DNA of 64,000 nt from NCBI RefSeq assembly GCF_030384885.1, contig NZ_CP128613.1, one strand, 5' to 3'. Made by a program: the position numbers. Origin of the DNA: Escherichia coli. Its GTDB lineage: Bacteria > Pseudomonadota > Gammaproteobacteria > Enterobacterales > Enterobacteriaceae. Below are positions 47,153-53,100 of the stretch, piece by piece (position 1 is the stretch's first letter; every line of letters begins with the position of its first letter).

Positions 47153-50100
47153 TAACAGCAAGGCCTTCTCCGGGAGAAGGCCTTGAACTCTGAATCGCAC
47201 TTAACCCGCAACTGCAATACGTTTCATATCCGTCATATAGCCGCGCAGTTTCTTACCTACCTGCTCAATCGCATGGCTGCGAATCGCTTCGTTCACATCA
47301 CGCAACTGCGCGTTATCTACCGCACCTTCCGGAATAGCTTTACCCAGGTCGCCCGGTTGCAGCTCTGCCATAAACGGTTTCAGCAACGGCACACAAGCGT
47401 AAGAGAACAGATAGTTACCGTACTCGGCGGTATCAGAGATAACCACGTTCATTTCGTACAGACGCTTACGGGCGATGGTATTGGCAATCAGCGGCAGTTC
47501 GTGCAGTGATTCATAGTAAGCAGACTCTTCGATGATGCCGGAATCAACCATGGTTTCGAATGCCAGCTCAACGCCCGCTTTCACCATCGCGATCATCAGT
47601 ACGCCTTTATCGAAGTACTCTTGCTCGCCGATTTTGCCTTCAAACTGCGGCGCAGTTTCGAACGCGGTTTTGCCGGTTTCTTCACGCCAGGTCAGCAGTT
47701 TCTTATCGTCGTTAGCCCAGTCCGCCATCATGCCGGAAGAGAATTCGCCAGAGATGATATCGTCCATATGTTTCTGGAACAGCGGTGCCATGATCTCTTT
47801 CAGTTGTTCAGAGAGCGCGTAAGCACGCAGTTTCGCCGGGTTAGAGAGACGGTCCATCATCAGGGTGATGCCGCCCTGCTTCAGGGCTTCGGTGATGGTT
47901 TCCCAACCGAACTGAATCAGTTTTTCTGCATATGCCGGGTCGGTGCCTTCTTCCACCAGCTTGTCGAAGCACAGCAGAGAGCCAGCCTGCAACATACCGC
48001 ACAGAATGGTTTGCTCGCCCATCAGGTCAGATTTCACTTCCGCAACAAAGGACGATTCCAGCACGCCAGCACGGTGACCACCAGTTGCTGCCGCCCATGC
48101 TTTAGCGATCGCCATGCCTTCGCCTTTCGGATCGTTTTCCGGGTGAACGGCAATCAGCGTCGGTACGCCAAACCCACGTTTGTACTCTTCACGCACTTCA
48201 GTGCCAGGGCATTTCGGCGCAACCATTACTACGGTGATGTCTTTACGGATCTGCTCGCCCACTTCGACGATGTTGAAACCATGTGAGTAACCCAGCGCCG
48301 CGCCGTCTTTCATCAGTGGCTGTACGGTGCGCACCACGTCGGAGTGCTGTTTGTCTGGCGTCAGGTTAACCACCAGATCTGCCTGCGGGATCAGCTCTTC
48401 GTAAGTACCCACTTTAAAACCGTTTTCGGTCGCTTTACGCCAGGATGCGCGCTTCTCAGCGATCGCTTCTTTACGCAGGGCATAAGAGATATCCAGACCA
48501 GAATCACGCATGTTCAGGCCCTGGTTCAGACCCTGCGCACCACAACCGACGATGACCACTTTTTTACCCTGAAGGTAGCTCGCGCCATCGGCGAATTCGT
48601 CGCGGCCCATAAAGCGACATTTGCCCAGCTGTGCCAGCTGCTGGCGCAGGTTCAGTGTATTGAAGTAGTTAGCCATGGTGATTCCTCGTGATGTTGTGCT
48701 TCTTATTGTTCGGTTCGCGTTTGCGAGATTGAATTCACTATATGACAGGAAATTTATTGCGGAAATTGATATATTCACAACGTCACATTGCAATTTTTGC
48801 AACGTCAACATTGAGGGCTGCGCCATTGGATTTACGCGATCTGAAAACCTTCCTGCATCTGGCGGAAAGCCGCCATTTTGGCCGCAGCGCGCGGGCGATG
48901 CACGTTAGTCCATCCACGCTTTCCCGACAGATTCAGCGCCTGGAAGAAGATCTCGGTCAGCAGCTGTTTGTGCGCGATAACCGTACGGTGACGCTGACCG
49001 AAGCGGGCGAAGAACTGCGCGTTTTCGCCCAGCAAACACTGTTGCAGTATCAGCAATTGCGCCACACCATCGACCAGCAAGGACCGTCGCTCTCTGGCGA
49101 ATTACATATCTTCTGCTCGGTGACCGCTGCCTACAGCCATCTGCCGCCGATTCTTGACAGATTCCGCGCGGAACACCCGTCAGTGGAGATCAAACTCACT
49201 ACCGGTGATGCGGCGGATGCGATGGAAAAAGTGGTGACGGGGGAAGCGGATCTGGCGATTGCCGGGAAGCCGGAGACGCTGCCCGGTGCAGTGGCGTTTT
49301 CGATGCTGGAGAATCTGGCAGTGGTGCTGATCGCGCCTGCCCTACCGTGCCCGGTGCGTAATCAGGTTTCGGTAGAGAAGCCGGACTGGTCTACAGTGCC
49401 GTTTATCATGGCAGATCAGGGGCCGGTGCGCCGCCGCATTGAGCTGTGGTTCCGACGCAATAAAATCAGTAACCCGATGATTTACGCCACGGTTGGCGGA
49501 CATGAAGCGATGGTTTCGATGGTGGCGCTCGGCTGCGGCGTGGCATTGTTGCCGGAAGTGGTGCTGGAAAACAGCCCGGAACCGGTGCGTAACCGCGTGA
49601 TGATTCTGGAGCGTAGCGATGAGAAAACGCCGTTTGAGCTGGGCGTTTGTGCACAAAAAAAGCGGCTGCATGAGCCGCTGATTGAGGCTTTCTGGAAGAT
49701 TTTACCGAATTACTAAGGACAATTTCATGACAACAAGAAAGTGGATATTATTATTGGTTTTAGCGGTAAGTTGCATTGCGCAAGCCAAACCGAAAGGTAT
49801 CACCGTTCAGGATGTGAAGCATCTGGCGTTGAAAGAGTGTTTAACGTCCCATTATCGTGAGCGTACGCCCGCTGATGCCTTTTCGGCTCCTGCTCATGAC
49901 GTTTCATTTCTGCTTGAAAGGTATGCTTTAGATAATGCTGGAAAGTGGAATGCTTTTCAGAAATTTGTCGCCAAAGAGACGAAGGGATTTGGCACCCTCA
50001 CCCTTGCGCTACATCCCGATAGCGCAAAGGATGCGAATAACATAATGGAGCGGTGTATGAGCTTTTATGAGTCGGAAAAGCTTGATAATTACATTCGTAA

Positions 50101-53100
50101 TAAGATTATGAAGTAAATCGTGAGAAATAAATACATGGCAAAAAATAATAATCACTTACCATCGAATATCGATAATTTCTCTATCCATAAGAAATACACC
50201 CACATATTTGACATTGCCTTTGTAAAGTTTGGTGCCAGACTGGCAGATGTACAAATGACACTATTCAAAAACACATCGCCCTCAGTTTATACACTTCAAT
50301 GTATAAGTGACGATGAATTGTTCTTTATTGATATTTACGAAGATGAGCAAGCCGTGTTAGCAGAACACCGAATTATTGATAATGAAGAAAATATTGTTTT
50401 CATCCCACATTGTTTTACAAAAATGTTAATGACTGCTTGTCAGGAAGCTAAAAAACAACCTGCTTTATACACGGAAGATATACTAATGAGCAAAAGAGTG
50501 CGTCGCCAGCGACTATCACAGACTATGCCTGCTCTGGTGAGCCTACGTGACATCCATATCGATTTTAGGACCAGTTACGGACATGGCGAAGCCTCATACG
50601 AGATCAATTTTAGTCCATACGCTATCGAAAATGGTGACTGGATGAACGCTAAAAGGTGCAGAAATTTTTCTGTTATGTTCGATGAGAATATGAATTTTAT
50701 AGAAGTTCAATGGTATAGGGATTAAAAAAACTTAAACCGAAACACGATTTGGAAACATAACAACCTCCACTTCAATTTCTGTTAAATTACTTAAATTGAT
50801 TATCAGTTTTAACTCTGAATGTTCGTTAATTGCCATCAAAATATCATTGCTAACAGAAATAAAGCTTATTGGGTTAGTCTGGGTAAAAAAGAATCCCCAG
50901 ACAAAATTATTATCAGCATCTATATATACCAACGATCCCTCGTTTCCCATCGTTCCATCACCGCCGTAGATTTTCCCGCCTTTATACTCAGTAAATGTCC
51001 AGTAGTCGACGGGAACCCAGCAATCAGAATCGTATTTTTCAATACTGGAGAAGGATGTATCACACAAAGGAGTACACCAGGCTTTCTTCTCTTTCGTGTA
51101 ATTATCGAAAGACTCCCGCCAGTTTAAAAGGGTGACAGTCCCATTCGCAAAGGTCAGGCTATCGATTCCAGGTAACTCTTTTTTCTCTTCCCAGCGTTTA
51201 AACATGACAATAAATCCTTTTATTTCATCACGTAGTATAACTCCCTAATGAAGACGTTCATTAGGGAGCCATGTGTTTAACCCGCCAAAAAGAACCTGAA
51301 CGCCGGGTTATGGGTTTCGTCGTGGCAATCGTAGCCCAGCTCATTTAGCCGGGTTTCGAAATCCGGTTCGTGGTCGCCAAGCTCGAACGCCGCCAGTACG
51401 CGCCCGTAGTCGGTACCGTGGCTGCGATAATGGAAAAGCGAAATGTTCCAGTGGGTACCTAGCGTGTTGAGGAAGCGCAGCAGCGCGCCCGGCGATTCCG
51501 GGAACTCGAAGCTGTAGAGGCGTTCCTGCAACGGATGCGATGGACGCCCACCAACCATATAGCGCACGTGTAGCTTCGCCATTTCGTCGTCGGAGAGATC
51601 AACCACGCTGTAGCCGCCATCGTTGAGCATCTGCAAAATTTCTTTACGCTCTTCGAGCCCTCGACTTAAGCGCACGCCGACAAAAATGCAGGCGTTTTTG
51701 GCATCGGCAAAGCGGTAGTTGAACTCGGTGACCGAGCGCCCGCCAAGCAGTTGGCAGAACTTCAGGAAGCTGCCCTTCTCTTCCGGGATAGTCACCGCCA
51801 GCAACGCTTCACGCTGTTCACCCAGTTCGCAGCGTTCCGAGACGTAGCGCAGGCCGTGGAAATTGACATTCGCCCCCGAAAGCACATGCGCCAGTCGTTC
51901 GCCGCGAATATTGTTCTGGGCGATGTATTTTTTCATTCCCGCCAGCGCCAGCGCGCCGGAAGGTTCCGCCACCGCGCGCACATCTTCGAATAAATCCTTC
52001 ATCGCCGCACAGATCGCATCACTATCGACGGTGATGATGTCGTCGAGATACTCCTGGCATAAACGGAATGTTTCGTCGCCAATGCGTTTTACCGCTACGC
52101 CTTCAGCAAATAGCCCCACGCGCGGCAGATCAACCGGATGACCCGCATCCAGCGCCGCTTTCAGGCAGGCGGAGTCTTCCGCTTCAACGGCAATCACTTT
52201 GATTTGCGGCATCAGTTGTTTGATCAGCACCGCCACACCCGCCGCCAGACCGCCGCCGCCGACCGGCACAAACACGCGGTCAAGATGGGCATCCTGCTGG
52301 AGCAGTTCCAGCGCCAGCGTGCCTTGCCCGGCGATCACCATCGGGTGGTCGAACGGCGGCACCCAGGTGAAGCCCTGCTGCTGTGACAGTTCGATCGCTT
52401 TCGCTTTTGCTTCGTCAAAGTTCGCGCCATGAAGCAACACTTCGCCGCCAAAGCCGCGTACCGCATCAACTTTGATATCGGCGGTGGCGGTTGGCATGAC
52501 GATCAGCGCCTTCACGCCTAACCGCGCGGAGGAAAACGCGACGCCCTGCGCGTGATTACCCGCCGAGGCAGTGATCACGCCATGCGCTTTTTGTTCTTCC
52601 GTCAGGCCCGCCATCATGGCGTATGCACCGCGCAGCTTAAAGCTGTGTACCGGCTGGCGATCTTCGCGCTTCACCAGAATCACGTTATCAAGACGCGACG
52701 AGAGCTTTTCCATTTTTTGTAGCGGCGTGACCTGCGCCGCCTCGTAAACCGGTGCACGTAGCACCGCTCTTAAATATTCGGCGCCTTCCGGAGCACCAGA
52801 CAGGGGTTGTGAGTCTGCCATCATTAACCCCCCAGTTTCGATTTATCGCGCACCGCGCCTTTGTCGGCGCTGGTTGCCAGGCTGGCGTAGGCGCGCAGGG
52901 CAAAGGAAACCTGACGTTCACGGTTTTTCGGCGTCCAGGCTTTGTCGCCACGGGCTTCCTGCGCTTCACGACGGGCCGCCAGTTCGGCATCGCTTACCTG
53001 TAACTGAATGCCACGGTTCGGTATGTCGATGGCGATCAGGTCGCCGTCTTCAATCAGGCCAATGCTGCCGCCGCTTGCCGCTTCCGGCGAGACGTGGCCG

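Follow-up and report, generated by a model that had tools for sequence, protein, structure and literature searches.

A divergent Tai4-like orphan gene behind ilvY in Escherichia coli: a candidate periplasmic immunity protein against Tae4-type amidases

In a stretch of 64,000 nucleotides (nt) of the Escherichia coli contig NZ_CP128613.1 (assembly GCF_030384885.1), referred to here as the window, a small open reading frame (ORF), ORF1, follows directly behind ilvY and is annotated as a hypothetical protein. This locus raises the question of what such a gene encodes and how it is expressed from a position between two genes of amino-acid biosynthesis, ilvY and ilvA. We found that ORF1 is a real coding gene, and its homology to the Tai4/Rap proteins is well supported by sequence comparison. 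With somewhat better than even confidence we read ORF1 as a periplasmic orphan Tai4-family immunity protein against Tae4-type amidases that is carried by the ilvY transcript.

A conserved gene at the end of ilvY

The sequence of the window is 100% identical to the chromosome of E. coli 2013C-4282 (NZ_CP027579.1; human stool, USA), and the RefSeq annotation of that chromosome was the source of the gene calls used for the window. The features at the junction of the two genes are as follows:

49727-50116, + strand: ORF1, 129 amino acids (aa), MTTRKWILLLVLAVSCIAQA-KPKG..., RefSeq hypothetical protein WP_000213253.1
49715-49719, + strand: Shine-Dalgarno sequence of ORF1, AAGGA, with a spacing of 7 nt to the ATG at 49727, from the sequence
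48826-49716, + strand: ilvY, LysR-type activator, 296 aa, TTG start, from the RefSeq annotation and the sequence
49727-49786, + strand: signal peptide of ORF1, aa 1-20, MTTRKWILLLVLAVSCIAQA, with a predicted signal-peptidase-I cut after AQA
49787-50116, + strand: mature domain of ORF1, Tai4-like and predicted all-alpha, aa 21-129 and stop, with C38 and C110 invariant and C-M-x-F-Y-E-S-x-K-L-D as C-terminal motif

Intact orthologues of 127-129 aa are present in E. fergusonii, E. albertii, Salmonella, Phytobacter, Kosakonia, Superficieibacter and other Enterobacteriaceae, and at least six genera of this family carry one. A search of 5.8 billion proteins returned 26 cluster representatives of ORF1 homologues, all of them enterobacterial where a source is named (E. 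fergusonii, E. albertii, Pseudocitrobacter, Salmonella, Phytobacter and Atlantibacter). When one genome per species was scanned (about 100,000 species representatives), 12 loci were obtained. Loci with ORF1 were found in E. fergusonii, which has the same three-gene islet as the window, in E. albertii, Salmonella serovar Gatineau, three Phytobacter species, Kosakonia sp. S29 and two Superficieibacter species, as well as on a contig of NBRC 105695 labelled 'K. oxytoca', in two metagenome-assembled genomes (MAGs) of Enterobacteriaceae and on one Pseudocitrobacter-labelled contig. Searching with the neighbouring proteins by tblastn placed every ORF1 orthologue between ilvY and ilvA on the ilvY strand. 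Pairwise ratios of nonsynonymous to synonymous divergence (dN/dS) are 0.1-0.2 for ORF1 and therefore indicate purifying selection. A spurious reading frame was ruled out by the conservation of the orthologues together with these ratios.

The first-pass annotation had described a small ORF abutting ilvY, and this physical description is correct: ORF1 starts on the + strand 10 nt behind the ilvY stop codon. A ribosome-binding site overlapping that stop had also been proposed, and the AAGGA does overlap the TAA at 49714-49716. The arrangement is conserved, with an equivalent junction in 10 further loci, where a TAAGGAG-type ribosome-binding site lies at or overlaps the ilvY stop; in 11 loci, which represent several genera, the ORF1 ATG follows this stop at a distance of 9-12 nt. 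IlvY of the window shares 99% amino-acid identity with IlvY of K-12. A consensus scan of the interval between ilvY and ORF1 detected no terminator-like hairpin, while the consensus promoter scan gave weak matches only (9 found against 4.7 expected) and none convincingly positioned for ORF1. Because of the 10-nt gap, the ribosome-binding site overlapping the stop, the lack of a terminator in that interval and the conservation of the junction across genera, expression of ORF1 from the ilvY promoter appears most likely. Judged from this arrangement ORF1 is probably co-transcribed with ilvY, and possibly also translationally coupled to it.

An N-terminal export signal, which had been noticed at first pass, is present and conserved, and is of the signal-peptidase-I type in all full-length members of the family. 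Each of them has one or two basic residues near the N-terminus followed by a hydrophobic core (best 10-residue Kyte-Doolittle mean 2.5-3.2). Q19, A20 and K21 are invariant within the sequence [AV]-Q-A|K-P-K-G, a classical -3/-1 signal-peptidase-I site found in every full-length member.

Relationship to the Tai4/Rap immunity proteins

The top Pfam match of ORF1 is PF16695 (Tai4), with an E value of 0.0047 and 17.9 bits over profile positions 4-90 of 92. The same profile matches 13 of 20 orthologues at E<1 nearly over its full length, the best E value being 3.9e-4. Searching PDB sequences with a profile of the ORF1 family gave Rap1b of Serratia marcescens (4ax2) as best match; it is weak (E 0.18), but the alignment extends over the entire length and keeps the two cysteines as well as the motif C-L-x-x-Y-x-S-x-x-L-D-K in register. 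A phmmer search of the PDB sequences with ORF1 alone returned ORF56 only, at E 0.9, which we discarded as a chance match.

For the profile-profile comparison we assembled a Tai4 reference set of 73 genuine PF16695 proteins, gathered with the Rap1b domain as query, of which 23 were aligned. With hhalign the ORF1 family (A1) matched these 23 Tai4/Rap1b proteins at 96.2% probability with an E value of 2.2e-9 over 108 columns, and the extended family (A3) described below reached 97.4% and E 1.2e-11, whereas an unrelated negative control gave 0.2%. A comparison with the Tai immunity families had been suggested in the first-pass annotation and came out positive (96-97% probability, E 2e-9 to 1e-11). 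The AlphaFold2 model of ORF1 is all-alpha, with a mean predicted local distance difference test score (pLDDT) of 79.6 and a predicted template modelling score (pTM) of 0.67.

Of the cysteines in ORF1, the two in the mature part that had caught attention in the sequence, C38 and C110, proved to be invariant in 20 orthologues and in 47 proteins of the extended family, and they align with the cysteines of Rap1b. In Rap2a a disulfide links C42 and C102, and the pair is conserved in Rap1b, Rap2b, EcTai4 and StTai4, in the last as C48-C108 (PMC3852654). C38 and C110 of ORF1 correspond to this pair. Since the Pfam match, the match to Rap1b in the PDB, the profile-profile comparison and the all-alpha model converge, we assign ORF1 to Tai4/Rap; by sequence it falls into a divergent subfamily that escapes the curated thresholds now in use.

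When 1.84 billion representatives were searched exhaustively with the profile, the family grew to 62 proteins at an E value of 1e-3 or better; nearly all of these are 115-145 aa long and carry a signal peptide. The invariant positions of this extended family are C38, D58, C110 and S116, and the nearly invariant ones N42, Y43, F113, Y114 and L119. Pfam Tai4 is matched at E<0.01 by 15 of the 47 extended-family proteins. We examined the genomic context of five remote relatives. The gene of P0117 (L028) overlaps the stop of a 239-aa gene with a Pfam Tae4 match of 89.5 bits, and genes for TsiV and VgrG adjoin; the gene of P0122 (L029) overlaps the stop of a 230-aa gene with a Pfam Tae4 match of 78.8 bits; the gene of P0105 has a VgrG gene and three small ORFs upstream of it. 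Because P0117 and P0122 adjoin Tae4-domain genes, the wider family is taken to include classical effector-adjacent Tae4 immunity genes, with the ORF1 clade and some others as predicted orphans. P0117 and P0122 belong to the same profile family as ORF1 (E 6e-8 and 2e-7 to the ORF1 profile) and likewise have a signal peptide and the four invariant residues C, D, C and S, but they are only about 26-27% identical to it and overlap a Tae4 gene, with TsiV and VgrG genes in addition at P0117, while ORF1 has no such neighbours.

The Tae4-domain proteins at these two loci (L028 5282-6001 and L029 321-1013) have some 55-80 residues before the amidase domain, and at 230-239 aa they are longer than the canonical E. 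coli Tae4 encoded in L032 (168 aa). They may represent a long-form Tae4 subfamily with its own immunity clade.

We compared ORF1 with StTai4 (STM0278, 4j32), EcTai4 (4hfk) and Rap1b, Rap2a and Rap2b of S. marcescens. Identity in structural alignments is only about 8-18%, the segment between the cysteines is about 12 residues longer in ORF1 (72 versus 60 residues apart), and ORF1 neither adjoins tae4 nor lies in a cluster of a type VI secretion system (T6SS). Rap1b and Rap2b lack cognate effectors and have been proposed to act as guards against foreign Tae4 enzymes (PMC3852654). They are like ORF1 in being Tai4-family proteins with no known partner effector, but are encoded in a T6SS cluster next to ssp1, ssp2, rap1a and rap2a, not in an amino-acid biosynthesis locus. 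A further orphan Tai4-like gene, t0730, has been described in SAIDI-1, a putative T6SS immunity islet of S. Typhi (PMC7400221). By its description t0730 resembles ORF1 as an orphan Tai4-like gene with homology that shows only at the level of hidden Markov models, located in an AT-rich enterobacterial islet and with homologues downstream of Tae4 genes elsewhere. SAIDI-1 differs in being a 14-gene array at yegQ that is confined to few serovars. ORF1, by contrast, is one gene accompanied by two unrelated ones; in several genera it occupies the same conserved site behind ilvY, where it is apparently carried on the ilvY transcript.

An orphan at a fixed position and the alternatives

No Tae4 or T6SS gene was found beside ORF1 or its orthologues in about 14 loci, all with ilvY and ilvA as flanking genes. 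Nor was a T6SS or effector gene found near ORF1 in the 64-kb window, the part of the 5.03-Mb genome that was examined at the protein level. We also searched 5,426 complete E. coli genomes by blastn with the canonical E. coli tae4-tai4 pair (L032) and obtained no match, at the DNA level, where a divergent Tae4 could escape. With no effector or T6SS gene adjacent, ORF1 is therefore an orphan, which does not exclude its homology to Tai4.

Tae4 effectors are NlpC/P60-type amidases that cut the bond between gamma-D-glutamate and meso-diaminopimelate (gamma-D-Glu-mDAP) of peptidoglycan after delivery to the periplasm by the T6SS. After export, Tai4 neutralises Tae4 in the periplasm by forming a heterotetramer with it around a central Tai4 dimer (PMC3695027). 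For ORF1 we infer a periplasmic location, dimerisation, binding of Tae4-like amidases, protection and co-transcription. ORF1 would be exported to the periplasm through a cleavable signal of the Sec/signal-peptidase-I type, giving a mature form of about 109 aa, which would adopt an all-alpha Tai4/Rap fold stabilised by a C38-C110 disulfide. By analogy with the solved Tae4-Tai4 complexes, a dimer of ORF1 would bind incoming Tae4-type NlpC/P60 amidases from the T6SS of competitors, block their active site and so protect the cell wall. The ilvY gene is negatively autoregulated. From its fixed slot behind ilvY, ORF1 would be transcribed from this autoregulated promoter at a steady low level without a promoter of its own.

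Several observations weigh against this reading. The Pfam Tai4 score of ORF1 lies below the gathering threshold of 27.1 bits, and no NCBIfam Tai4 model matches ORF1. The AlphaFold2 model contains two low-confidence loops, and a Foldseek search of PDB with this model returned nothing at E<1 and did not recover Tai4. In E. albertii the gap between ilvY and the ORF1 orthologue is 925 nt, due to an inserted HigB/HigA-like toxin-antitoxin pair on the opposite strand (L008-L010, 7078-7733; Pfam Gp49 95.8 bits and HTH_37 63.8 bits), and on the Pseudocitrobacter-labelled contig the gap is 1,186 nt. Since a toxin-antitoxin insert of about 0.9-1.2 kb separates the genes in these cases, coupling to ilvY is not obligatory. 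Two of the five remote relatives examined, P0101 and P0103, are solitary among housekeeping genes. Finally, a position that is fixed over several genera is unusual for a horizontally exchanged immunity gene, so that a housekeeping role is possible.

Such a role is the alternative that best survives, although we regard it as unlikely: ORF1 would be a periplasmic protein of Tai4 fold that has lost, or never had, a function against the T6SS. In this clade it might instead keep an endogenous cell-wall hydrolase of the NlpC/P60 type in check, or interact with some other protein of the periplasm. That the gene occupies strictly one chromosomal position in at least six genera and is under purifying selection would agree with this, as would the absence of effector or T6SS neighbours, the solitary relatives just mentioned and the result of a tblastn search of 72,556 plasmids with ORF1, which returned no match. 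However, the gene is dispensable, being missing from 5,424 of the 5,426 complete E. coli genomes and represented by no more than the 12 loci among the species representatives; those relatives with informative neighbours adjoin Tae4 effectors; and the amino-acid sequence of ORF1 evolves 5-10 times faster than that of ilvY. In pairs from different genera dN amounts to 0.24-0.31 for ORF1 as opposed to 0.02-0.05 for ilvY, whereas for closer pairs dS of the two genes is about the same, and their pairwise distances are only moderately correlated (Spearman 0.41). High nonsynonymous divergence is expected for a protein that tracks variable effectors; relaxed constraint would fit as well.

A variant of the orphan-immunity reading, which we hold with similar reserve and put forward tentatively, takes the fixed position into account. 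The ORF1 clade would be a vertically kept, 'hard-wired' orphan immunity gene, retained over long evolutionary periods at one housekeeping site in several enterobacterial genera, translationally coupled to IlvY and lost in mainstream E. coli, where a repetitive extragenic palindromic (REP) element now occupies the gap. Defence against Tae4 would then be constitutive, possibly tied to ilvY autoregulation or to branched-chain amino-acid physiology. In a more radical form the clade may have been co-opted to control an endogenous NlpC/P60 cell-wall hydrolase.

The first-pass annotation had also pointed to a possible lipobox around a cysteine in the signal sequence, and ORF1 could accordingly be a lipoprotein, cut before Cys16 by signal peptidase II and anchored in the membrane; we think this quite improbable. 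The sequence L-A-V-S-C16 of the window protein fits a loose lipoprotein pattern similar to PROSITE PS51257, and some family members have a good L/I/V-A-A-C box. But no more than 9 of 18 full-length members show this loose pattern, and the strict lipobox [LVI][ASTVI][GAS]C is not present in the window protein. Several members have I, M or L at position -1 of the box, the signal cysteine is missing altogether in P0009 and the L013 orthologue, and it is [AV]-Q-A|KPKG that is universal instead. Moreover, the characterised Tai4/Rap proteins are soluble, with their signal sequences cleaved (PMC3852654). Since the signal-peptidase-I site and not Cys16 is conserved, a soluble periplasmic protein is the better reading of the sequence, and the lipobox was not upheld.

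We consider it very unlikely that ORF1 is the cognate immunity protein of a Tae4-like effector encoded elsewhere in the genome. Effector and immunity genes are occasionally unlinked, and within the 5.03-Mb genome the examination at the protein level covered the window only. Against this, known Tae4-Tai4 pairs are adjacent, the window and the about 14 loci contain no such gene near or beside ORF1, and for the L032 tae4-tai4 DNA no match exists in any of the 5,426 complete E. coli genomes, this one included. The first-pass guess at an immunity or inhibitor protein is supported as regards immunity to T6SS amidases, by homology to Tai4; a lysozyme inhibitor (Ivy, MliC, PliC) or immunity to another periplasmic toxin (lipases, other Tae families) can be dismissed as highly improbable, as it would account for generic traits only, a small exported protein with a disulfide pair, and ORF1 shows no sequence or fold match to Ivy or MliC/PliC.

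The ilvY-ilvA islet, its history and its significance

The gene order in the window is rep, a PemK/MazF-family toxin gene, ppiC, ilvC (-), ilvY (+), three hypothetical genes, ilvA (-) and ilvD. In K-12 ilvY and ilvA are spaced by only 51 bp of REP-like sequence. This segment is replaced in the window by about 1.55 kb of AT-rich DNA with 32-44% G+C, in contrast to 55-60% in the flanks, which contains three genes, ORF1, ORF2 and ORF3. Besides ORF1 and ilvY the following features were mapped:

50135-50725, + strand: ORF2, 196 aa, WP_001107527.1, second islet gene, without signal peptide or family match
50732-51205, - strand: ORF3, 157 aa, WP_000476904.1, third islet gene, convergent with ORF2
51241-51268, no strand assigned: hairpin CTCCCTAATGAA-gacg-TTCATTAGGGAG, perfect 12-bp stem and 4-nt loop, between the ilvA stop and the ORF3 start at the right edge of the islet
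51277-52824, - strand: ilvA, right flank of the gap

The start of ORF2 is ambiguous (GTG at 50120 or ATG at 50135); taken at the ATG, it lies 18 nt past the ORF1 stop, and ORF2 is probably on the same transcript as ORF1. No match to ORF2 was found in Pfam, NCBIfam, PADLOC or PHROGs, nor by tblastn in plasmids and phages. Its homologues are restricted to the same islet, in E. fergusonii (L034, 202 aa) and on contig L011 (87%), and in E. albertii only a C-terminal remnant of about 40 aa is left. ORF3 is a cytoplasmic all-beta protein whose family is distributed over several phyla. None of the three islet proteins had a meaningful match in NCBIfam, PADLOC or PHROGs, and an Rfam scan of 48000-52000 detected no RNA family. 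Since the hairpin at 51241-51268 has no clear T-tract on the ilvA (-) strand, a role as terminator is uncertain.

IlvY ends in ...ILPNY* in the window and in ...ILPNHK* in K-12. As these last codons differ, the left junction of the islet lies at the very end of ilvY. A repeat search of the islet detected neither flanking direct or inverted repeats nor mobility genes, and without flanking repeats there is no sign of an insertion of the transposon or integrase type.

Between ilvY and ilvA there seems to be a short region of variable content. A DUF2461 gene (172.9 bits) adjoins ilvA there in Salmonella serovar Gatineau and Phytobacter (L003 8404-9490; L004 8432-9136), a remnant of this gene is present in one E. 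albertii assembly, and in Salmonella an extra 124-aa ORF without family match lies directly behind the ORF1 orthologue. In E. albertii two more ORFs follow, one of 185 aa without family and one of 219 aa with a weak match to flavodoxin/FMN-reductase-like proteins. Outside the gap, the interval between rep and ppiC in the window carries an intact PemK/MazF-family toxin gene (46273-46722, +) with no adjacent antitoxin gene annotated; its K-12 counterpart is annotated as frameshifted.

The islet is present in only two of the 5,426 complete E. coli genomes. A recent horizontal import into an ordinary E. coli was rejected: over the surrounding 14-20 kb, in the ilv/rep region (40000-60000), identity to K-12 is about 94-95% without a sudden local rise in divergence, and the agreement of ORF1 dS with ilvY dS for closer pairs likewise disfavours it. 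In the distant wec region of the window (28000-31000) the best other complete genome is only 98.7% identical. As the host strain is divergent, the islet is rare because the lineage is rare, and not because it entered a typical E. coli recently; the strain is possibly a member of a cryptic Escherichia clade. We read the distribution as long co-residence of ORF1 with ilvY followed by loss in mainstream E. coli; spread by homologous recombination through the conserved ilv flanks is a possible alternative.

In the window ilvY is 99% identical to ilvY of an E. fergusonii assembly, compared with about 94-96% in the flanks, a contrast which suggests a mosaic history. Two contigs deserve mention. L011 (JAEWCA010000422.1) is a 3.2-kb contig in an 'Actinomycetes' MAG with an Escherichia-type ilvY, ORF1, ORF2 and ORF3, and is probably mis-binned. 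L012 (NZ_CALSBS010000050.1) is a 14.5-kb contig in the type-strain assembly of Pseudocitrobacter vendiensis whose IlvA is 100% identical to that of the window, suggesting contamination or recent exchange.

In the literature library that could be searched, no paper was found linking ilvY with an immunity protein or mentioning WP_000213253. Orphan Tai4-like immunity genes are already known, and ORF1 is a new, divergent member; what is modestly unusual is that several genera keep it in the same place behind ilvY and that it apparently relies on the ilvY transcript. Since this kind of system is known and the function is predicted only, the significance is incremental. A RefSeq 'hypothetical protein' gains a candidate function, and the recognisable Tai4 family is extended by a subfamily below the Pfam and NCBIfam thresholds, with 62 representative clusters, some of them beside long-form Tae4 genes. 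Riding on the mRNA of a housekeeping regulator would be an unusual mode of expression for an orphan immunity gene. The carriers of ORF1 include a divergent human-stool lineage of E. coli, E. fergusonii, E. albertii, some Salmonella, and environmental or clinical Phytobacter, Kosakonia and Superficieibacter. If ORF1 protects against Tae4 amidases, it could influence which enterobacteria survive attack by the T6SS of other bacteria.

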